A stretch of DNA of 64,000 bases from Candidatus Omnitrophota bacterium (GTDB lineage Bacteria > Omnitrophota > Gorgyraeia > 2-01-FULL-45-10), in the NCBI GenBank assembly GCA_028715345.1, contig JAQUSB010000005.1, forward strand, positions 10,042 to 74,041, read 5' to 3'. Below, piece after piece: positions 2,491 to 34,516 of the stretch (the stretch's first letter is position 1; each line of letters opens with the position of its first letter). The position numbers were made by a program, and so were the translations under genes. The notes below the pieces were generated by a model. It had not been told where the DNA came from, did not search any database, and saw only the letters and a program-made list of their open reading frames with translations.

Positions 2491-2531
2491 AGTAGCGCAC
2501 CCTTAAGGGTGCGCTACTTTTGTGGATAATT
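2491..2531. repeat. REP-like palindromic element copy 1
   Basis: Sequence AGTAGCGCACCCTTAAGGGTGCGCTACT plus TTTGTGGATAA tail. It sits between convergent genes, and the same family recurs at 21060, 27187, 31231, 31768 and 47348. Confidence 0.8.
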
Positions 2532-8287: not shown

Positions 8288-10774
8288 ATGGAAGACGAAA
8301 GACTTTATCCTTTTAATACGATAGAGCCGAAGTGGCAGAAATTCTGGCGCGAGCAGAGGCTCTTCAATATCGACACCAAAAATACCGCGAACAAATATTA
8401 CTGCCTTATGATGTTCCCGTACCCGTCGGCCGCTCTTCACGTGGGCCACGGACGCAACTATATCATAGGCGATGTCGTCGCGCGCTATAAGATGATGCGC
8501 GGCTTCAATGTCCTGGCGCCTATGGGATTCGATTCGTTCGGCCTCCCGGCGGAGAACGCCGCCATAAAAGGCGGTATCCATCCGAAGACATCCACTTTAA
8601 ATAATATCAGCACGATGAAGCGCCAGCTGAACCAATGGGGCGTCGAATATGACTGGGACAGGGAAGTGATATCCTGCCTGCCGGAATATTACAAGTGGAC
8701 GCAGTGGATATTCGTAAAATTATACGAGAAGGGATTGGCTTACAAGAAGAAGGCGTTCGTCAATTGGTGCCCTTCGTGCAAAACGGTCCTCGCAAATGAG
8801 CAGGTCGTTAACGGCGCCTGCGAAAGATGCTCTACGGAGGTTAGTCAGAAAGAGCTCGAGCAGTGGTTCTTTAAGATAACGGCGTATGCAGATAGGCTCC
8901 TGGCGGATCTCGGTAAACTCACCGAGTGGCCCGAACGCGTAAAGACGATGCAGGCGAACTGGATAGGGAAGTCGGAAGGCGTCGAGATAGACTTTAAGAT
9001 CGACGGTATGGACCGGACGCTTAAATGTTTTACGACGAGGGTCGACACCATCTACGGCGCGACTTTCATAGCTTTAGCCCCCGAGCACCCGCTTGTCAAT
9101 ACGCTCATTAAAGGATGTAAAGACGAGGCCGGGGTCCTGAAGGCGATCCAGAAGATGCGCAACGAATCAAAGATAGAACGCTCCCAGGCCGAGATAGCCA
9201 AGGAAGGCGTTTTCACCGGCAGGTATGTCATAAATCCGGTCAATAACAAGAAAGTGCCCATATGGATCGCGAACTATATCCTGATGGACTACGGCACAGG
9301 CGCTATAATGGCTGTTCCCGCGCACGACCAGCGTGATTTTGATTTTGCCAAACAATATAAACTTCCGATCGAGGTCGTCATAGATAATCCTAAAGAGAGC
9401 CTTAACGCCGGAACGATGAAAGAGGCTTACACCGAAGAAGGCGTCATGGTGAATTCCGCGCAGTTCGACGGCCTCACCTCGCAGGTTGCTATGAAAAAGA
9501 TCGCCGATTATTTCGAAGAGAAGGAATTCGGTAAAAAGACGACTCAATATAAGCTGAGAGACTGGCTCATTTCCCGCCAGCGTTATTGGGGCGCGCCGAT
9601 ACCTATGATATATTGCGAAAAGTGCGGCGTCATGACGGTGCCCGCCGAAGACCTGCCGGTGCTTTTGCCGGAGAGCGTGGAGTTTCGACCGACGGGAGAA
9701 TCGCCGCTGAAATTTGTCAAAGATTTCGTGAATACCAAATGCCCGAAGTGCAAAGGCCCGGCCGCAAGAGAGACCGACACGATGGATACTTTTGTCGACT
9801 CGAGCTGGTATTTTTTGCGGTATATCACTCCGAAGATGAATGACAAGCCTTTCGATACCGATCTTGTGAATAAATGGCTCCCCGTAGATCAATATATCGG
9901 CGGCATCGAGCACGCCATACTGCACCTTTTGTATTCGCGTTTCATAACGAAATTTTTATGCGATATAGGCATGGTCGGTTTCGATGAGCCGTTCAAAAAT
10001 CTGTTCACGCAAGGCATGATAATAAAAGACGGCGCAAAGATGTCGAAGTCGAAGGGGAACGTCGTGTCGCCCGACGCGCTCATAAGAGATTTCGGAGCCG
10101 ACACGGTGAGGTTATACACGTTATTCATCGGGCCTCCGGAGAAAGACGCCGAGTGGTCGGATAGGGGCGCGGAAGGCTCGTATAGATTCTTGGGAAGGGT
10201 GTGGCGGTTGGTGGAAAAACGGCCCGCAGCCAAAGGCCGGGCCGCGTCGGGCGCTAAGATATCAAAAGAAGCCGAGGATTTAAAACGCAAAGTCCACCAG
10301 ACTATAAAAAAAGTCACCGAGGATCTCGACGGAGGATTCCATTTCAATACGGCTATCAGCGCTATAATGGAACTGGTGAACGAAACTACCGACGCGATGA
10401 ATGCCGAGGCCGCCACTCCGGGCGACGGAGCAGGCGTTTTAGCCGAAGCCATAGAGAGCATCGTTATCCTTCTTTCGCCGTTCGTGCCTCACATAGCAGA
10501 GGAGATGTGGCAGTCGCTCGGTAAAGAGAACAGCATCTTTAAATGCAAATGGCCGTCTTACGACAAGGCCGCTATCGTGGAGAACGTCCTTACGATCCCC
10601 GTCCAGGTGAACGGTAGACTCCGCTCGAAGGTGGAAGTGCCTTCGGACATAAGCGAAGATAAATTGAAAGAGCTTGTCCTGGCCGATCCGAAAGTCAATA
10701 CCTGGATATCCGGCAAAGCGATAAAAAAATTCATAGTCATCCCGAAGAAATTGGTAAACCTGGTAGTCCAATAA
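8288..10774 (+). CDS. leuS: leucyl-tRNA synthetase
   Basis: HIGH-type 'HVGHGRNY' and 'KMSKSKGN', 828 aa. Confidence 0.92.
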   Translation: MEDERLYPFNTIEPKWQKFWREQRLFNIDTKNTANKYYCLMMFPYPSAALHVGHGRNYIIGDVVARYKMMRGFNVLAPMGFDSFGLPAENAAIKGGIHPKTSTLNNISTMKRQLNQWGVEYDWDREVISCLPEYYKWTQWIFVKLYEKGLAYKKKAFVNWCPSCKTVLANEQVVNGACERCSTEVSQKELEQWFFKITAYADRLLADLGKLTEWPERVKTMQANWIGKSEGVEIDFKIDGMDRTLKCFTTRVDTIYGATFIALAPEHPLVNTLIKGCKDEAGVLKAIQKMRNESKIERSQAEIAKEGVFTGRYVINPVNNKKVPIWIANYILMDYGTGAIMAVPAHDQRDFDFAKQYKLPIEVVIDNPKESLNAGTMKEAYTEEGVMVNSAQFDGLTSQVAMKKIADYFEEKEFGKKTTQYKLRDWLISRQRYWGAPIPMIYCEKCGVMTVPAEDLPVLLPESVEFRPTGESPLKFVKDFVNTKCPKCKGPAARETDTMDTFVDSSWYFLRYITPKMNDKPFDTDLVNKWLPVDQYIGGIEHAILHLLYSRFITKFLCDIGMVGFDEPFKNLFTQGMIIKDGAKMSKSKGNVVSPDALIRDFGADTVRLYTLFIGPPEKDAEWSDRGAEGSYRFLGRVWRLVEKRPAAKGRAASGAKISKEAEDLKRKVHQTIKKVTEDLDGGFHFNTAISAIMELVNETTDAMNAEAATPGDGAGVLAEAIESIVILLSPFVPHIAEEMWQSLGKENSIFKCKWPSYDKAAIVENVLTIPVQVNGRLRSKVEVPSDISEDKLKELVLADPKVNTWISGKAIKKFIVIPKKLVNLVVQ

Positions 10775-27162: not shown

Positions 27163-27186
27163 CGGCTTTCATCCCACAAATTACGA

Positions 27187-27225
27187 TTTATACACAAAGT
27201 AGCGCACCCTTAAGGGTGCCCCAAG
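27187..27225. repeat. REP-like element copy 2 (decayed right arm)
   Basis: TTATACACAAAG tail plus TAGCGCACCCTTAAGGGTGCC. The right arm is degenerate. Confidence 0.55.
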
Positions 27226-27441
27226 CTTTGCTCTTGCCTGAGCTGGGCGGCCCTATCAATAGGACGTTGTGGACGAAATACGACGATTCCCTTCGAGATA
27301 GAGGCGGTTTTAAGATGAAATATAACCAGATATTCGGCGCTTTTCGTCGGATAATTGAAGTGCGAAGAGTTAATATTTCACGTGAAATAAATGGGCGAAG
27401 GGATAAAGGTCGAGGTAAAAATGACAGTAAAATAAACCTTG

Positions 27442-27472
27442 ACATCGAAGCTTGCCAAATGCTATAAAGTAA
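27442..27472 (+). promoter_or_regulatory. sigma70-like promoter TTGACA-N18-TATAAA for island operon
   Basis: 'ttgacatcgaagcttgccaaatgctataaag' lies about 100 nt upstream of the first island gene. Confidence 0.35.
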
Positions 27473-27570
27473 TGTAAGCTTTAAAAGAAAACATATGTTA
27501 AAACCCGCCAAAGTAGTGCATAGCCAAAAAATCCGCGGCTATTTTTATGTTATGGAGAGGAGGCGATAAG

Positions 27571-27747
27571 ATGACACGTCCGCAAACCAATAAAGAAATA
27601 CAAGAGCAGTTTATTAAAAAAGCCCAGAGTGCCGGTGTCACAGTCTATAAGAACAATATTCACACGGCTAAACCATTATCGCAAATCTGCGGATCTATCA
27701 AGACAAGGTATCCTTCCTGCACCCGGGATCTTATCTGCGGACGATGA
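27571..27747 (+). CDS. small protein (58 aa), translationally coupled upstream partner of PIN protein
   Basis: Strong SD 'GGAGAGGAGG' 8 nt upstream. Its stop overlaps the PIN start (ATGA). No recognisable fold. Confidence 0.35.
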   Translation: MTRPQTNKEIQEQFIKKAQSAGVTVYKNNIHTAKPLSQICGSIKTRYPSCTRDLICGR

Positions 27748-28430
27748 GCCCAGATAGTTCATCCTATAAGAATTTTTCTGATAGGCCTATCCCACCCATT
27801 CTATATGTTGATACTAGTTTTATTGTAGATGCCCTAGTTGATGGGCAGCTTTTCCATAAGGAATCTATGGGGTTTATCGACGAGATGGCTAAAGATGTCG
27901 ATAAGCAGCCTATTCTCATATTCTCTGATATCCTGAAGATTGAATTGAAATGCGCTGTTACTTCAATATGCATAAGAAACGACTACGGTAAAAATATTAG
28001 TATAAATAGAGTGCTTAAGCTGCATCCGGATTTAATACAAAAATATTACCCCACTGTGGAGTTGGCAGAAAAACAGTTTATGGATGTCTTGCAAAGATTT
28101 AAGAACTGGACATCCATGCCTATTGATGAAGAAATAATAAATAGAGCTGGATCGGTTATGCCAAAATACCGACTTGGGAGTTCAGACGCAATACATGTTG
28201 CTACGATGGAAAAGTGGGATATAAAAGATATATTGACATACGATTGGGGCATCGAGGATCTTCCGATGTATAAAGGGGATTGCAGTGTTTGGACCTGTAA
28301 TGGATGGCGAAGGTATCTTAGCCGATCAAAACGGCGTAGTAAGCGTGATGAGGAATTAAAGAGACTAATTGAAGAAGCCAAAGAAATACTTAAGCTAGGA
28401 TCCAGAGACGAGAATAGGTCGTTAGCGTAA
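27744..28430 (+). CDS. PIN-domain nuclease with C-terminal basic/coiled extension
   Basis: N-terminal 'ILYVDTSFIVDAL' (first Asp) and C-terminal 'SSDAIHVATM' (PIN fourth acidic motif). Confidence 0.55.
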   Translation: MSPDSSSYKNFSDRPIPPILYVDTSFIVDALVDGQLFHKESMGFIDEMAKDVDKQPILIFSDILKIELKCAVTSICIRNDYGKNISINRVLKLHPDLIQKYYPTVELAEKQFMDVLQRFKNWTSMPIDEEIINRAGSVMPKYRLGSSDAIHVATMEKWDIKDILTYDWGIEDLPMYKGDCSVWTCNGWRRYLSRSKRRSKRDEELKRLIEEAKEILKLGSRDENRSLA

Positions 28431-28463
28431 TAGTGTTACGATAAAATCAGAGGATAGATCATC

Positions 28464-29270
28464 ATGACGATTTGTATAGGTGCATTGTGTGATCAAGGTA
28501 AAAATTGCATTGTGGCGGCAGATAGGGAGATCACCGCCCCCGGTCTTAGCTTAGAATTTGATCATGAAAAGAAAATAGAACCGTTAACCGATTCTTGCGT
28601 AGTAATGTCGGCGGGAGATTCGCTTCTTGCTGCTGAAGTTATAGAAAAAACACGCTCCATCGTTACTGGCAAGTCCGGCGCTACTATTCGACAGATCGCT
28701 GAAGCGTTGAAGAATGTTTATTTTCAGGTTCATACTGAAAGGGCAGAAAACGTTATTCTACGGCCGCGCGGCCTTACTTTGGCAGAGTATAAACAAAATG
28801 GCGCGCAGCAAATTCCTTTACAGGCATATATGAACATAGACAATCTTTTCTGGACCTTCGGTATTAATGTAGTTGAGTTCATCATAGCTGGCGTTGATTC
28901 CACAGGAGCGCATCTTTTTAGAATATATTATTCTGGTATAGCTGGTGGAAACTGGTTGGAATGGTGCGATAGGATTGGCTTTAGGGCGATAGGTTCCGGT
29001 GCGTTGCATTCAGCAATATTACTTTCTCTCGACGGTCAGCATAAAAATACGGCGCTTGAGCAAACGATATACAATATTTATTCTGCAAAAAAGAGCGCTG
29101 AAGTAGCACCTGGAGTCGGCCCATCTACCGACATAGCTGTTATAACTTCTTCCAAGGTAGATTTTCTTTCTACGACGGCGATCGACAAGCTTTCAACCGT
29201 TAGATGCGAAGCTCTGAAAAATAGACTAGTAAATTCTGAAAAAATAAAAGGAATTTATGAATCAAGATAA
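28464..29270 (+). CDS. proteasome beta-subunit/HslV-like N-terminal nucleophile (Ntn) hydrolase
   Basis: Thr immediately after Met ('MTICIGAL'), 'CIVAADREIT' (Asp17 equivalent), a Lys about 33 and 'AIGSGALHSA' (the GSG motif of the T1 peptidase family). Confidence 0.55.
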   Translation: MTICIGALCDQGKNCIVAADREITAPGLSLEFDHEKKIEPLTDSCVVMSAGDSLLAAEVIEKTRSIVTGKSGATIRQIAEALKNVYFQVHTERAENVILRPRGLTLAEYKQNGAQQIPLQAYMNIDNLFWTFGINVVEFIIAGVDSTGAHLFRIYYSGIAGGNWLEWCDRIGFRAIGSGALHSAILLSLDGQHKNTALEQTIYNIYSAKKSAEVAPGVGPSTDIAVITSSKVDFLSTTAIDKLSTVRCEALKNRLVNSEKIKGIYESR

Positions 29271-29463
29271 TGCGATTAATATTGCTAATGTAATAACAAA
29301 CACAAGATATTGTCAGAATGATGATTATTATAATCTCTTTTTAAGGGCCACAGAGATCGACCTGGAAAGCATAAAGGTTGCCCTGCGAACGGGGACGATA
29401 ATTGATCTTATTAGCCCTTCGCTTAAAGAAATACTTAACGAGAAAGCGAATCAGGACTTCTAA
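29257..29463 (+). CDS. hypothetical small protein (68 aa)
   Basis: ORF overlaps the preceding gene by 14 nt in an operonic arrangement. No motifs recognised. Confidence 0.3.
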   Translation: MNQDNAINIANVITNTRYCQNDDYYNLFLRATEIDLESIKVALRTGTIIDLISPSLKEILNEKANQDF

Positions 29464-29520
29464 TTTATTGCAGGCCTTTGTTTTATTGACATCCCATCCC
29501 CATAGGTTTACAATGGCCAC

Positions 29521-30234
29521 ATGGACGGTACCAAGGCTCTCATAGACCTCGAAAACCCGAAAAGCATTGCAGAGCTACTTCGCGAACCTACCATAAAGAT
29601 ATCCGAATTCCTTACCGGGCTGATCATTTCAGATAAGAACGACTATAAATTATCTGCTGGCCACCTGGTCCAGGCGGCGATAAAGTGTAACCTTTTACAG
29701 CAATTTGGCCGCGAGATAAAGCACTACCGCGAAAAAGGCAAGATCAAAGAGGACTTTTTCTCAACCGATAAGCAGCGCGCTACATTGCGAGAGTTGCTCG
29801 AGTTCATAGATAAAGAAGCACCGGATGAGGATCGTTTCAAGGCTATGAAGTCGATATTTTTTGCAACAATTTCAAAAGATTCCACTGGCCCTGATGAAAT
29901 ACTCGGATACGAGCTCATGCAGATATGTAAAAAATTAACAAGCAATGACGTAGTTCTTTTAAAAACGGCTTATAGTGTTTACATTGGTGGAAGTTCTGCC
30001 CCCATAGAGGAAACTACAAGGCCGCGCGAAGCGACGGCATGGTTCAATATCATTGCAGAAAAAATAGGCCATAAGTTACCGGCGTTAGCCGAATTAAGTG
30101 AGCAAAACTTAATGGATCTTAAGTTAATAGGAAGGCGGCGCTATCCCGACGGGAGCGGGCTTTATAATCAAGAATCGTTTCGTTTGACAGATTTAGGAAT
30201 TAAGCTATGCGAATTTATTACTGAATATCAATAA
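29521..30234 (+). CDS. hypothetical protein (237 aa)
   Basis: Uninterrupted ORF with AT-rich codon usage matching the island. No motifs recognised. Confidence 0.45.
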   Translation: MDGTKALIDLENPKSIAELLREPTIKISEFLTGLIISDKNDYKLSAGHLVQAAIKCNLLQQFGREIKHYREKGKIKEDFFSTDKQRATLRELLEFIDKEAPDEDRFKAMKSIFFATISKDSTGPDEILGYELMQICKKLTSNDVVLLKTAYSVYIGGSSAPIEETTRPREATAWFNIIAEKIGHKLPALAELSEQNLMDLKLIGRRRYPDGSGLYNQESFRLTDLGIKLCEFITEYQ

Positions 30235-30315
30235 AGTGAACGTCATAAAGGGTATGGTATGAGTTCTGACAAATAATATAGGTAAACTGAGCAACTCCAG
30301 AGAGGGGTTGCTTTT

Positions 30316-31095
30316 TTGTTGGAGAACTTAATGGCAGATTGCAAATCTTGCGGTTACTGGATTCCTGACGGTGCTAAGAAGTGCGCGCATTGCGGCGCCG
30401 ATATTAGTCTTACGAAGCCACAAATAGCGTGGAAATGGGTATCGTTTATCACGAATCTCGGTGCGATTGCTGCAAGCTTTGCGACATGCGTGATGGCTAT
30501 TGTCATGCTTGCTCAGAGTTCATCCATGGAAAAGCAGTCGATTTCGCTCGAGGAACAGACACAAGCCTTAAAGGTCCAGGCCGCCTCTATTAAAGCTCAA
30601 ACGAAGATCCTCCAAAAGAATTTTGAACTCGAGTATATTCCGGTTATAAAAATAGGAGCGGTAGCTTTTAATTACATACCATATAGCGACCGTCCGGACC
30701 ATCGCCTGGTGATGATGTATTTTATAGTACCTATAGAAAATAAACACGGCTTCGCGGAAAATATAAAAATAATTAAGAAAGAGATCGTTCTATTGAGAGG
30801 TACATTTAACCTTCAAAACGCGGAATGTATGCGCGGTCCTTTAGTAGAACGCCCCTTTGAATTGTCGTCTGGGCAAATCAAATACGACACAATAAAGATC
30901 GATGAAGAAGCGCCCAATTTTGAAAAGGTTATGGAAGGGAAAGAAGCCTTTATTCTCGAATATAAAATAGAATATGAAGCATTGCCGGGAGTAGTTAAGG
31001 GTAGCTATATTTATAACTATGTTATAAAATTCAGTGGAGGGCGGCAAGAGGTTATTACTGAAAATACTATACCTCCAAAGGAGACAGCACAATGA
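30316..31095 (+). CDS. Zn-ribbon membrane protein with coiled-coil
   Basis: N-terminal 'CKSCGYWIPDGAKKCAHCG' (CxxC...CxxC) and a TM helix 'VSFITNLGAIAASFATCVMAIVML'. Coiled-coil 'EEQTQALKVQAASIKAQTKILQK'. Confidence 0.45.
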   Translation: MLENLMADCKSCGYWIPDGAKKCAHCGADISLTKPQIAWKWVSFITNLGAIAASFATCVMAIVMLAQSSSMEKQSISLEEQTQALKVQAASIKAQTKILQKNFELEYIPVIKIGAVAFNYIPYSDRPDHRLVMMYFIVPIENKHGFAENIKIIKKEIVLLRGTFNLQNAECMRGPLVERPFELSSGQIKYDTIKIDEEAPNFEKVMEGKEAFILEYKIEYEALPGVVKGSYIYNYVIKFSGGRQEVITENTIPPKETAQ

Positions 31096-31140
31096 AAAAG
31101 ATGATATCTGTATTAATGATTTGCCTATTCATGTCCGGCC

Positions 31141-31216
31141 CGTATCTTTTTAAGTACCATAAGGCATTTCTTGCGAGGTGCTTCTTTTTAAGCCATGTTA
31201 TCGAAAGATAAGGAGT
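31141..31216. repeat. 76-bp duplicate of an internal yraN segment (about 93 % identity to 33519..33594)
   Basis: Aligned by eye with 5 mismatches. The 33519 copy is in frame within yraN and encodes 'GPPYLSITWLKKKHLVRNALWYLKRY'. The 31141 copy is intergenic. Confidence 0.75.
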
Positions 31217-31230
31217 TAGGATAGATTAGT

Positions 31231-31270
31231 AGTAGGGCACCTTTAAAGGTGCCCTACTTTGTGGATAACT
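31231..31270 (+). repeat. REP-like element copy 3 (left flank of RAYT)
   Basis: AGTAGGGCACCTTTAAAGGTGCCCTACTTTGTGGATAACT. Confidence 0.8.
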
Positions 31271-31273
31271 TTA

Positions 31274-31778
31274 CTAATCTATCGGGTCTATCCCTAAAGC
31301 ATTCCTATTGTTGCCGAAGTAATGATCATAACTGGAATATGGATAATCTCCAGGTGATACGGCAATGTTTTTGCGGATAGGATTATTATGTATATATTCT
31401 ATTTTTTGCATTAACATTCTCGTATCTCTTATGCCCTCATCGTAAAAACGTTTTTGCCATACCTGTCCGCTGATATTGCTTAACTTATTATACTTTCTTG
31501 CAAAACTTCCTTTTTATCATCCGCATTATGTACGATAAGTCATATTTTCCGACAGGGCGTAGTATGAGATGCAAATGGTCGGGCATTATGCAGTAAGCAT
31601 ATATTTTATAGTCTAAAATCAGTTTGTAATATTCGATCGTTATCAAAAGAATTCGACACATTTTATCATCTTTAAATATAGGGTAGCGTTCTTGTGCTAT
31701 AGTTGTCACGAAATACGAATACCCTGCTTCGAAATGACGTTTAATATTTCCCATGAAAAGCCTCCGAGTTATCCACAA
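31274..31778 (-). pseudogene. REP-associated tyrosine transposase (RAYT / IS200-like Y1 HUH), frameshifted
   Basis: N-terminal frame (31488..31778) has 'YSYFVTT' and the HuH motif 'PDHLHLIL'. A different frame (31274..about 31490) encodes 'GQVWQKRFYDEGIRD...EYIHNNPIRK...YPYSSY' with the catalytic Tyr region. Confidence 0.7.
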
Positions 31779-31808
31779 TGTAGGTCACCCTTAAGGGTGA
31801 CCTACATA
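31768..31808 (-). repeat. REP-like element copy 4 (right flank of RAYT, inverted)
   Basis: GTTATCCACAATGTAGGTCACCCTTAAGGGTGACCTACAT. Confidence 0.8.
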
Positions 31809-31845
31809 TAATCAAAACAATATACATAACGATAGTTGTATATTC

Positions 31846-33375
31846 TTACCCCCACAAATTCCTATCCAGGCTCCTGTATGAGATCGCTTCCGATATGTGA
31901 TGAGCTTCGATGATCTCTTTTCCGTCGAGATCAGCGATGGTGCGGGCTACTTTCAGTATCTTGTCGTAAGCTCTCGCCGAGATGCCGAGCTCGAGGATGG
32001 CGAGCTTCAGTAATTCCTCGCTCTCTTTATCGAGAACGCAGTATTTTTCCAGTTCTTTCGATTCCAGGTGGGCATTGAAATAAACGCGGTCATTTTTATA
32101 CCGCGCTTTCTGGACTTCGCGGGCTGAGTCTACGCGTTTGCGTATCTCTTCCGAAGGCTCGCCCCGGCGCTTGTCGGTGAGGTTTTCCAGTTTCAGCCGC
32201 GGGACCTCGAGGTGCATGTCTATCCTGTCGAGAAGCGGGCCGGATATCTTCGATAGATAATTCTGTATCTGGAAAGGGGAGCAGTGGCATTCGCGTTTCG
32301 GATCGGTAAAATAACCGCACGGGCAGGGGTTCATCGCGGCTACGAGCATAAATTTAGACGGGTAAGTAAGCCGATTTGAAACCCTGGAAATGGTAATAGA
32401 ACCTTCTTCGAGTGGTTGGCGCATTACTTCGAGGACGTTACGTTTAAACTCGGGCAGCTCGTCTAAGAACAGCACGCCGTTATGGGCGAGCGATATCTCG
32501 CCCGGCATCGGGTTCGGCCCCCCGCCGACCAATGCAGCGTCGGAAATAGTATGGTGAGGCGAGCGGAACGGCCTTGTCAGCATTAAACCTTTATTCGGCG
32601 GTAAGAGCCCGGCGACGCTCTGTATCTTGGACGTCTCTAAACTTTCCTCGAGCGTCATATCGGAAAGTATGGTAGGCAGGCGCTTGGCAAGCATACTCTT
32701 GCCCGAGCCGGGCGGGCCTATCAATAAAACATTATGGCCGCCCGCGGCGGCGACTTCGAGGCCGCGCTTCACGTGCTCCTGGCCCTTCACATCGTTAAAG
32801 TCGACCCTGTATCTTGCGGCCCGCTTCATGACGGTCTCCGTGCTGCATTTTTGCGGGGCCTGGATCCTGCCGTTCAGGAAATCTATCACGTCTTTCAGCG
32901 ATTCCATAGGGTAGACGCCGATATCGTCCACGACGGCCGCTTCTTTGGAATTTACTTTAGGAAGGATGAATTTTTTCCTGCCCGTCTTTTTCAGGGCCAT
33001 CGCTATCGGCAAAGCGCCTTTAATGGGCTTCAGTTTACCGTCGAGCGAAAGTTCGCCGCAGAAGACGAAATCGGATAAAAGGGAAGAGTCGGCCACGCCT
33101 TCCGTAGCGAGAATGGATAGCGCTATAGGCAGGTCGAACGACGAGCCCTCTTTCTTTATGTCGGCGGGCGCCAAGTTCACGGTGATCTTTTTCGCCGGGA
33201 ACGAATAGCCGGAATTCTTTATGGCCGATTTTATCCTGTCGCGCGATTCCTTTACGGCGGTATCCGGTAATCCCACTATATTTATGCCGGGCAGGCCTCC
33301 TCCGGTATCTGTCTCTACGATCACTTCATGAGCTTCGACGCCTATGACGCAGCTCGAAAATATCTTCGCGATCAC
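31846..33375 (-). CDS. comM: YifB/ComM family Mg-chelatase-like AAA+ ATPase
   Basis: N-terminal Lon-like S5 fold, Walker A 'GPPGSGKS', and a C-terminal ChlI-like domain. 509 aa. Confidence 0.8.
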   Translation of the reverse strand: MIAKIFSSCVIGVEAHEVIVETDTGGGLPGINIVGLPDTAVKESRDRIKSAIKNSGYSFPAKKITVNLAPADIKKEGSSFDLPIALSILATEGVADSSLLSDFVFCGELSLDGKLKPIKGALPIAMALKKTGRKKFILPKVNSKEAAVVDDIGVYPMESLKDVIDFLNGRIQAPQKCSTETVMKRAARYRVDFNDVKGQEHVKRGLEVAAAGGHNVLLIGPPGSGKSMLAKRLPTILSDMTLEESLETSKIQSVAGLLPPNKGLMLTRPFRSPHHTISDAALVGGGPNPMPGEISLAHNGVLFLDELPEFKRNVLEVMRQPLEEGSITISRVSNRLTYPSKFMLVAAMNPCPCGYFTDPKRECHCSPFQIQNYLSKISGPLLDRIDMHLEVPRLKLENLTDKRRGEPSEEIRKRVDSAREVQKARYKNDRVYFNAHLESKELEKYCVLDKESEELLKLAILELGISARAYDKILKVARTIADLDGKEIIEAHHISEAISYRSLDRNLWG

Positions 33376-33408
33376 TTCTTACTCCTTTCGATCTATGTAA
33401 TAAATTCA

Positions 33409-33786
33409 TTATCCATTATCCTCCACGGCGTTCTCTATCAATTCTATGGATTCAGGGCCGAGCCGGGCGTTCAATTTTATTGACGCGACGTCTATCCGCC
33501 AATCGGTGCCGGACAACCCGTATCTTTTTAAATACCACAGGGCATTTCTTACGAGGTGCTTCTTTTTAAGCCATGTTATAGAAAGATAAGGAGGGCCGAG
33601 AGAAGGGGAGGAACGTGTTTTGACTTCGACGAATATCGCGATACCGTCCTTTCTCGCGACGAGATCTATCTCGCCGAAAGGCGTGCGCACATTTCGGCCC
33701 AGTATATCGCAGCCGCGCTCTTTCAAAAATCTCGCGGCCATCTCTTCGCCGATCTTCCCGATCCTCTTATTCTCCCGGCCCCGCAT
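33409..33786 (-). CDS. yraN: YraN family (UPF0102) endonuclease
   Basis: 'GEIDLVARKDGIAIFVEVKTRSS...GPPYLSIT...KKKHLVRNALWYL' matches the YraN core. Confidence 0.7.
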   Translation of the reverse strand: MRGRENKRIGKIGEEMAARFLKERGCDILGRNVRTPFGEIDLVARKDGIAIFVEVKTRSSPSLGPPYLSITWLKKKHLVRNALWYLKRYGLSGTDWRIDVASIKLNARLGPESIELIENAVEDNG

Positions 33787-33787
33787 C

Positions 33788-34048
33788 TTATCCTCCGTAC
33801 GCTTCCAGGACGACGCGCTCTATCTCGTCCTTTATTTCCCGTTTGAGCGGGAAGACGGTGTTATACCACTTGCCGTCCTTTCCTTCTTCGCGCGGCATGC
33901 TTACGAAAAGCCCGTCTTTGCCTTCTACTACCCTCAGTCCGTTTATGACAAGGCAGTCGAGTATCGACAGGTCGCAGAATGCTTTTGTAGCGCCGGTCCC
34001 GTCCAGTTTGTGCAGACGGGTAACGGTCAGCTTCAGATCTTCTGTCAT
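33788..34048 (-). CDS. spoVG: SpoVG family protein
   Basis: 'LKLTVTRLHKLDGTGATKAFCDLSILDCLVINGLRVVEGKDGLFVSMP' matches SpoVG. Confidence 0.75.
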   Translation of the reverse strand: MTEDLKLTVTRLHKLDGTGATKAFCDLSILDCLVINGLRVVEGKDGLFVSMPREEGKDGKWYNTVFPLKREIKDEIERVVLEAYGG

Positions 34049-34516
34049 CGATATCACCTCCTCTCGCCGCTGAAGACGGTTTTGTGTTTCGCGGTATTGC
34101 ACTTTATTTTAAAATAATTTCAGCGAGCCCCAAAAAACCCAAAGTTAACGATGAAAAAGTCAGTGCAATAGGTATTGCAAATGCTTAATGCGTATGGTAT
34201 TTTTAATATTAGAAGAGGGGCTTAACCTTACGGAGGAAGGGCGGCTCTTCGAGAACCGGAAGCGTCATCCGGTAGTAGGTTGGCGCTACCAAGCTGGTCG
34301 AAGATCGCCGGCGTAATGACGGCCGGGACCTTTAAGAGAAGGCCGAGATCGGGGATCTCGGCACTTAGCCACCAAGTGGCTGAATAAACTTGGAGGCGAA
34401 AGCCTGAAAGCGATCGGCGATGGTTTTCTTTCGGAAAGGTTAAACCGCTTCTTCTGTGGATCCCGGGTTGAAAGACCTGGGATTTTCCATTTATAGGGAG
34501 CCTTCCGGAGTTCTCT

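Follow-up and report, generated by a model that had tools for sequence, protein, structure and literature searches.

Fuchs, Alva and Lupas (2021; PMC8665760) described 22 new proteasome-like families, for which they found no informative genomic contexts, and suggested that orphan proteasome homologs clear unfolded proteins. In their description, the PHI group carries a long helical insertion after H1/H2, at the site of the pore loop, which they speculated may prevent ring formation, and the missing H3-H4 insertion separates PHI from PMI-3 and PMI-4. Here we report on a 64,000-nucleotide stretch of DNA from Candidatus Omnitrophota bacterium (GenBank assembly GCA_028715345.1, contig JAQUSB010000005.1, positions 10,042 to 74,041), referred to below as the window, in which a proteasome-β-like gene lies among six + strand open reading frames (ORFs) between 27.5 and 31.1 kb. 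These genes, which we call A to F in their order along the strand, encode a small protein and a PIN-domain protein (A and B), the proteasome-like hydrolase and a second small protein (C and D), a helical protein (E) and a zinc-ribbon membrane protein (F). A first-pass annotation of the sequence had proposed that the six genes form one operon and one multi-component defence cassette. Our analysis led us to a different conclusion: the segment from 27.2 to 31.8 kb is very probably a horizontally acquired island of the defence or toxin-antitoxin (TA) type, in a variable spot by comM, that holds at least four independent modules and does not constitute a single system.

The evidence that carries this conclusion lies largely in the distribution of the six genes. 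We assembled 49 loci with homologs of C, 25 from GTDB genomes and 24 from JGI metagenome contigs, using an 11-sequence alignment in the search for C relatives, and compared them by tblastn with the other five proteins (A, B, D, E and F). D alone was found next to C, while B, E and F never were. Five further look-ups of close C relatives agreed with this, with no PIN-, E- or F-type neighbour in four additional loci. Because A/B, C, E and F do not co-occur, because A-B and E are found elsewhere with other neighbours, and because promoter- and terminator-like signals are present within the segment, we regard the modules as independent cassettes, brought side by side in this one genome.

The gene layout given in the first-pass annotation was reproduced by the ORF listing, which showed six packed + strand ORFs, the stop/start overlap ATGA between A and B, the 14-nt overlap between C and D, and a 58-aa ORF led by a Shine-Dalgarno (SD) sequence. 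The gap between B and C is 33 nt and contains an SD sequence. A single operon from A to F was not confirmed, as a predicted sigma-70-like promoter precedes E and an intrinsic-terminator-like hairpin lies between E and F (Table 1); both calls come from consensus scans, made here on DNA of a phylum with uncharacterised promoters. These predicted signals also bear on the proposal of a six-gene abortive-infection or defence cassette, in which a PIN nuclease with its partner, a self-compartmentalising protease and a pair of accessory proteins would act alongside a zinc-ribbon sensor or effector in the membrane. The location of all six genes on one strand, their close spacing and overlaps, and their even, low GC content are what such a cassette would show, and its component types are all known from defence islands. 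Nevertheless, we consider the cassette extremely improbable, and the context analysis has already largely refuted it: B, E and F were never seen with C in more than 50 loci, A-B and E occur separately elsewhere, E and F are preceded by the promoter-like site and the terminator-like hairpin, respectively, and F is a near-orphan.

The base composition of the segment differs from that of the rest of the window, as had been claimed from its appearance. The GC content of the island, between positions 27222 and 31845, is 0.402, compared with 0.498±0.013 (minimum 0.467) for 501 segments of equal length elsewhere in the 64 kb. The GC content at third codon positions (GC3) is 0.36-0.45 in genes A to F, about 0.2 lower than in the flanking genes for Lnt, a response regulator, ComM, YraN, SpoVG, ComEC and LolD, where it is 0.58-0.65. 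Both shifts support a foreign origin of the 27.2-31.8 kb segment and its horizontal acquisition. The low GC of the originally proposed island was thereby upheld and its extent was not: the right edge lies at 31845, beyond the earlier limit of 31095, and the additional DNA includes a frameshifted IS200-like gene of the RAYT (REP-associated tyrosine transposase; REP, repetitive extragenic palindromic) type. The other low-GC 1-kb bins of the window, at 13-14 and 42-43 kb, contain ordinary membrane or PilZ genes and no islands.

Profile searches upheld the domain calls made for the three recognisable proteins, namely a PIN domain (PF01850), a proteasome-like fold and a zinc ribbon with one hydrophobic helix. 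For B, the match to PF01850 had an E-value of 1.7e-10 and a score of 41.9 bits against a cutoff of 23.6, and the acidic residues D23, E67, D148 and D167 are invariant in 8 homologs. We found just 8 clusters of this family. A small ORF of 57-66 aa lies upstream of every PIN homolog examined (L050, L052, L053 and L063-L066), and in most of these loci it overlaps the PIN start by 4 nt. The retention of this partner, at 57-59 aa and with the stop/start overlap, in at least six other loci is in agreement with the suggestion that the small-protein/PIN pair is TA-like. Protein A is 60-71% identical, where aligned, to the small ORFs of L050, L052 and L053, and the C-terminal LICGR is invariant. The pair resembles type II TA systems of the VapBC type in having a small upstream gene that overlaps the PIN gene by ATGA, in the four acidic PIN residues and in its location in accessory islands. 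In contrast to VapBC, A contains no recognisable ribbon-helix-helix, AbrB, Phd or helix-turn-helix (HTH) DNA-binding domain and has no match in Pfam, NCBIfam or the PDB, A is more conserved than B, and the family is tiny. B is also longer than VapC (228 aa versus about 130 aa) and has an insert and a basic tail. Profiles of A, B and D gave no informative match in the PDB, where VapC was the sole link of B and a marginal one (E 0.16). Taken on sequence features, A-B would most likely be a type II TA-like module, with B as the RNA-cleaving toxin and A as the protein that neutralises it.

The gene that follows the A-B pair is not constant. It encodes a Upf1-like helicase of 1533 aa that carries a WYL domain in L050 (1458-6059), a 269-aa Trypsin_2 protease, after a gap of 340 nt, in L053 (1461-2270), and an AbiGi-family protein in L065 (1044-1775); the downstream genes in the remaining loci are of unknown type. 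Because the downstream gene differs between metagenomes, we regard the A-B pair as a marker of variable defence-type loci. Defence systems commonly exchange analogous effectors, and the protease of L053, taken together with the short, SD-containing gap between B and C in the window, could also be read as a sign that A-B-C-D is a functional four-gene unit in which the PIN pair senses or addicts and the downstream protease is an exchangeable effector. We find such a unit very unlikely, as proteases follow the pair in just 2 of the A-B loci resolved (at least 5), the two are 340 nt apart in L053, and this PIN family lies beside C in none of the more than 50 C loci.

The assignment of C to the proteasome fold was obtained by several routes. 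The score of C against the Pfam Proteasome family (PF00227) was 21.8 bits, compared with a cutoff of 22.4, and many C homologs carry PF00227. Human β7 was matched by phmmer with an E-value of 3e-4, and a profile of 30 C-family sequences matched the Methanocaldococcus jannaschii 20S β-subunit (E 1.3e-10) with both halves aligned. The AlphaFold model of C (predicted local distance difference test score 90.5) contains the alpha-beta-beta-alpha sandwich of 20S subunits, and Anbu was a weaker structural match to it than 20S β. Residues M1-T2, D20, K37 and G51 are invariant or nearly so among the 30 homologs, and G177-S-G179 is also conserved; T2, D20, K37, G51 and G177-S-G179 correspond to Thr1, Asp17, Lys33, Gly47 (oxyanion hole) and the GSG loop of the proteasome. 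Since every one of the 30 aligned homologs begins with M-T-(I/V)-C-I, C has no propeptide, and removal of the initiator Met would therefore expose the Thr nucleophile; methionine aminopeptidase removes the initiator Met before Thr. C would most likely be enzymatically active, either as a threonine peptidase or as a transpeptidase resembling connectase.

In the model of C, H2 (75-102) is followed by two extra helices, at 106-116 and 119-131, before the strand at 137-145. An 8-residue loop with no insertion connects H3 (180-189) to H4 (198-214), and the C-terminal helix spans residues 237-254. The predicted structure thus has the helical insertion after H1/H2 and lacks the one between H3 and H4. 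Because the first insertion is present and the second absent, because C has tight sequence links to genuine 20S subunits, and because its phyletic spread is PHI-like, the uncharacterised PHI group appears to be the best fit for C, judged by the published description of that group. PHI likewise has a C-terminal helix, no propeptide and no AAA+ partner, and is a small family spread over bacteria of the Planctomycetes-Verrucomicrobia-Chlamydiae group, Proteobacteria, other bacteria and Euryarchaeota; the C family is scattered over Omnitrophota, the candidate phyla radiation, Planctomycetota, Acidobacteriota, Proteobacteria and one Methanoregulaceae archaeon. For PHI the paper gives no informative gene context; the C family studied here shows a coupled small downstream ORF and neighbourhoods with restriction-modification (RM) genes, TA genes and mobile genetic elements. 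Compared with the 20S proteasome β-subunit of archaea, actinobacteria and eukaryotes (MEROPS T1), C lacks an α-subunit, a propeptide and an AAA+ unfoldase, has the two-helix insertion at the pore-loop position, and is a single mobile gene with no core operon. As was speculated for PHI, the insertion at the pore loop may change the way C assembles into rings, or keep rings from forming.

HslV, Anbu, BPH and connectase share the N-terminal nucleophile (Ntn) fold with C, and Anbu and BPH, like C, have no propeptide and no dedicated unfoldase. The Anbu operon, which Valas and Bourne are said to have described in 2008, reportedly combines Anbu with transglutaminase-like, ATP-grasp and alpha-E genes. 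The window contained no Anbu-operon family, and none appeared in the list of 25 (out of 90) Pfam families matched by neighbours of C homologs. The island contains no gene for an AAA+ unfoldase (HslU, PAN or Mpa/ARC), and only 2 of 108 neighbours of C homologs had a generic AAA match, and no recurrent AAA+ partner was seen. The earlier statement that C lacks AAA+, Anbu-operon and HslU partners was supported.

D is apparently unannotated in the public metagenome-assembled genome (MAG), because the locus tags of C (PHI58_01935) and E (PHI58_01940), proteins that are 100% identical to those of the window, are consecutive there. Homologs of D (35-54% identical) share the core Y..(L/F)LRA.E(I/L)D.E...G....L.SP, and in L001, L026, L061, L062, L068 and L069 their overlap with the 3' end of the C gene amounts to 14 or 4 nt. 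A hidden Markov model (HMM) built from 6 D sequences detected, besides the known one in L026, 5 copies outside its training set (L005, L028, L029, L033 and L035), each on the same strand as C and directly 3' of it, and the C-D pairing was found in 12 loci in all. In a distant clade of C homologs (33-39% identity; Acidobacteriota, Stellaceae, Binatus and Gemmatimonadaceae), a different small ORF lies over the C stop. This second type, which has the core LW.AQ.EW....G and is unrelated to D, is present in 6-8 loci that span at least 4 phyla (Table 1); its HMM also matched L010 and L011, both weakly (E about 8e-4). The occurrence of two types of small ORF indicates that the recurrent anatomy of the C family is an Ntn hydrolase with a translationally coupled small protein. 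We also considered that D might be fused to C in distant homologs, and rejected this, since the C-terminal tails in the alignment of 30 C homologs bear no resemblance to D. Made in a fixed ratio with C through the coupling, D would most likely be a regulator, inhibitor or adaptor of C, and would control the activity, assembly or target choice of the hydrolase.

The neighbourhoods of close C relatives are rich in genes of conflict and mobility, in support of the defence-type setting that the first-pass annotation had suggested. RM systems were found near C in L027 (type I, with an HNH gene), L062 (type IIG) and L002 (type III). An OLD-family nuclease, a protein with CARF and winged HTH domains, a methylase and VapBC lie nearby in L031, and HipA, HIRAN and Panacea TA genes in L061. 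A tRNA remnant, an HTH_17 gene and a serine recombinase surround C in L059, and serine recombinases are also present in L001 and L003. Phage structural, lysis or terminase genes are located near C in L006, L013, L040 and L069. Furthermore, an IS1-family DDE transposase adjoins the C-family gene in 8 loci from several phyla, 6 of them confirmed by Pfam (Table 1). The C family thus rides on mobile elements and, in its close relatives, sits among RM and TA genes. Searches for C among IMG/VR viral contigs, GenBank phages and PLSDB plasmids gave no copy.

The C copies beside IS1-type transposases are highly diverged. A bounded IS1-type element with C as cargo was not supported: no terminal inverted repeats were detected, and L023 and L024, which come from one MAG, share the transposase alone at the DNA level. 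The adjacency may reflect a cargo-carrying element, a favoured site of insertion or a domesticated partner. As a separate observation, the protein encoded directly upstream of the C homolog in L031 (6940-7728; identical in L032) combines a CARF/Csa3-like Rossmann domain with a winged helix (HFX_2341_N, DUF6293_C), and its gene lies between the RM methylase and the C homolog. The C protein of this 226-kb metagenome contig is about 55% identical to C of the window and also resembles the copy in a Methanoregulaceae MAG.

A quite different explanation is that C, with or without D, is an orphan proteasome homolog that serves its host as a housekeeping or stress protease, in which case a conflict link would be absent and its location in the island accidental. 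Fuchs et al. (2021; PMC8665760) found no informative contexts, distant C homologs have housekeeping neighbours and PADLOC gave no match, as this explanation would lead one to expect. We nevertheless think it unlikely, because the family has an extremely patchy distribution, with 118 clusters (90% identity) among 5.8 billion proteins, the GC content of C is foreign, and its close relatives lie repeatedly beside RM, TA, recombinase, IS1 and phage genes. By context alone, an anti-phage or addiction role of C-D is suggested. A more specific proposal, which we put forward tentatively and with limited confidence, is that C-D is an unrecognised two-gene conflict module, either anti-phage or TA-like, in which a proteasome-type threonine protease or transpeptidase would be checked or targeted by the coupled small protein, and which mobile elements would spread among uncultivated bacteria and archaea. 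We know of no described defence system that uses a proteasome-fold enzyme. A comparison of the six proteins with PADLOC-DB v2 yielded no system match except a spurious one between the zinc ribbon and DruE (E 0.011), scans of all six against NCBIfam and PHROGs returned nothing usable, and among the top-ranked results of a literature search no paper joined a proteasome homolog with defence terms. The coupling of C-family members to small proteins and their RM- and TA-rich neighbourhoods appear to be unreported so far.

E and F show distributions of their own. E has a weak resemblance to Abi_alpha (PF14337) that remains below the Pfam gathering threshold, and its homologs elsewhere lie beside a type II CBASS (cyclic oligonucleotide-based anti-phage signalling system) operon and beside DUF3800/HTH_17 genes; one distant relative was found in viral contigs. 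In another Omnitrophota genome (L054 and L055), a homolog of E with 63% identity lies in a syntenic comM-UPF0102-SpoVG locus, matching 29521-34102 of the window, and is followed by two different small genes in place of F. The two contigs end immediately before E, which fits a strain-variable hotspot. F consists of an N-terminal CxxC..CxxC ribbon, one transmembrane or hydrophobic helix, a coiled stretch and a conserved C-terminal domain of about 150 aa and of unknown function. Among 1.84 billion representatives, 22 relatives of F were identified, half of which lack the ribbon, and F was not found in viral contigs. Since the alignment with its homologs begins at residue 6 of the ORF as listed, the ATG at 30331 is the likely start of F. 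In our proposal E would be a solo helical/winged-helix gene under its own promoter, and F a solo, very rare zinc-ribbon membrane gene downstream of a terminator.

The borders of the island carry repeats that may relate to its origin. A family of 23-nt REP palindromes (GTAGSGCACCYTTAARGGTGCCC; GTAG(C/G)GCACC(C/T)TTAA(A/G)GGTGCCC) has 4 sites in the 64-kb window, where 0 are expected by chance. The left site shares 84% identity with 31765-31802 and is complementary to 31235-31268 at 88% of positions; its palindrome lies at 27199, exactly at the drop in GC and 37 nt past the stop codon of the response-regulator gene. Inverted copies lie on both sides of the Y1 transposase gene, which is the REP/RAYT arrangement, and a REP copy is also present beside comM at the equivalent position in L054 (1666-1681) and L055 (1560-1575). 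As in known REP/RAYT elements, there is a Y1 HUH transposase with an inverted 23-nt palindrome on each side and further copies dispersed in the genome; unlike in those elements, the gene in the window is frameshifted, and a third REP copy marks the opposite edge of the island, at a distance of 4 kb, with cargo in between. The frameshift makes it probable that the RAYT gene is inactive. Because REP copies are located at the left GC boundary and around the RAYT gene, A to F appear as cargo between them, which REP/RAYT activity may or may not have moved. Just inside the left edge, a 45-nt fragment is 82% identical to 32696-32740 within comM (E 2.8e-7), with 13 of 14 amino acids equal to ComM residues 214-227. 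This fragment lies 4.5 kb from the intact gene and points to a probable past insertion or rearrangement at a comM-associated hotspot. No tRNA gene was found at the island borders, and no Rfam family matched between 26.5 and 32.5 kb.

Several observations weigh against the interpretation of the segment as a set of independent modules of the defence type. Genes A to F are all co-oriented and the gaps between them are short. The spacing of B and C, with its SD sequence, means that A-B-C-D may be one transcript, with scope for a functional interaction within this genome. The A-B pair of L053 also precedes a protease, and although this enzyme has an unrelated trypsin fold, the coincidence might point to a logic that combines PIN proteins with proteases (n=2). 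The promoter and terminator calls are consensus matches, with the limits given above. The defence association of C is qualitative, and many distant C homologs lie among housekeeping genes, to which the lack of a PADLOC match must be added.

Table 1. Positions of the genes, signals and repeats in the window, and of selected genes at loci with C homologs (aa, amino acids; nt, nucleotides).
Feature	Position	Strand	Remarks
REP palindrome, fourth copy in window	2492-2517		palindrome scan of window
REP palindrome GTAGCGCACCCTTAAGGGTGCCC with conserved 5' flank	27184..27221	.	left edge of low-GC island, 22 nt past response-regulator stop
comM Walker-A fragment, encodes HNVLLIGPPSSGKS	27231..27275	-	45 nt; just inside left island edge
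A, putative antitoxin, partner of PIN gene	27571..27747	+	58 aa; ATG after GGAGG-type SD; longest ORF starts 27547
B, PIN-domain protein, putative RNase toxin	27744..28430	+	228 aa; basic C-terminal tail
C, proteasome-beta-like Ntn (threonine) hydrolase	28464..29270	+	268 aa; no propeptide (M-T-ICI...)
D, acidic protein, small partner of C	29257..29463	+	68 aa; 14-nt overlap with C
Sigma-70-like promoter, TTGACA-17-TACAAT (predicted)	29486..29514	+	11/12 consensus matches; ends 6 nt before E start
E, helical protein, solo accessory gene	29521..30234	+	237 aa; C-terminal winged-helix-like domain
Intrinsic-terminator-like hairpin (predicted)	30289..30313	+	10-bp stem and T-run, between E and F
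F, zinc-ribbon membrane protein	30331..31095 (listed ORF 30316)	+	254 aa; Zn_Ribbon_1 E 7e-5
REP palindrome, inner arm of pair around RAYT gene	31224..31270	.	also right-hand close of A-F segment
IS200-like Y1 (HUH) transposase, RAYT type	31274..31778	-	Y1_Tnp E 5e-9; one frameshift; HLHLIL and YIHNNP motifs, two frames
REP palindrome, outer arm	31767..31813	.	33 nt from comM stop codon (31846)
Second small-ORF type	L007 8770-8985
Second small-ORF type	L018 4318-4494
Second small-ORF type	L016 ~8797-8979
Second small-ORF type	L013 ~8788-8958
Second small-ORF type	L012 ~8788-8991
Second small-ORF type	L014 8788-8985
IS1-family transposase by C	L007 8989-9801
IS1-family transposase by C	L009 10571-11392
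IS1-family transposase by C	L014 8982-9839
IS1-family transposase by C	L019 9026-9907
IS1-family transposase by C	L021 8301-9155
IS1-family transposase by C	L023 8822-9658
IS1-family transposase by C	L024 8790-9644
IS1-family transposase by C	L039 8978-10039

The main value of these results is corrective. The supposed six-component system is most probably a hotspot of separate cassettes, and cloning or modelling should not treat it as a unit. Within it, A-B represents a small and atypical PIN/partner family that stands in front of variable genes of defence or unknown type. The anatomy of the C family is now consistent, with no propeptide, a predicted helical insertion at the pore loop and an overlapping small downstream gene of two types. 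For a proteasome-β-like family that was published with no functional clue, C-D thus offers a concrete two-gene lead, in which a protease that may act in genetic conflict would be the hypothesis to pursue.

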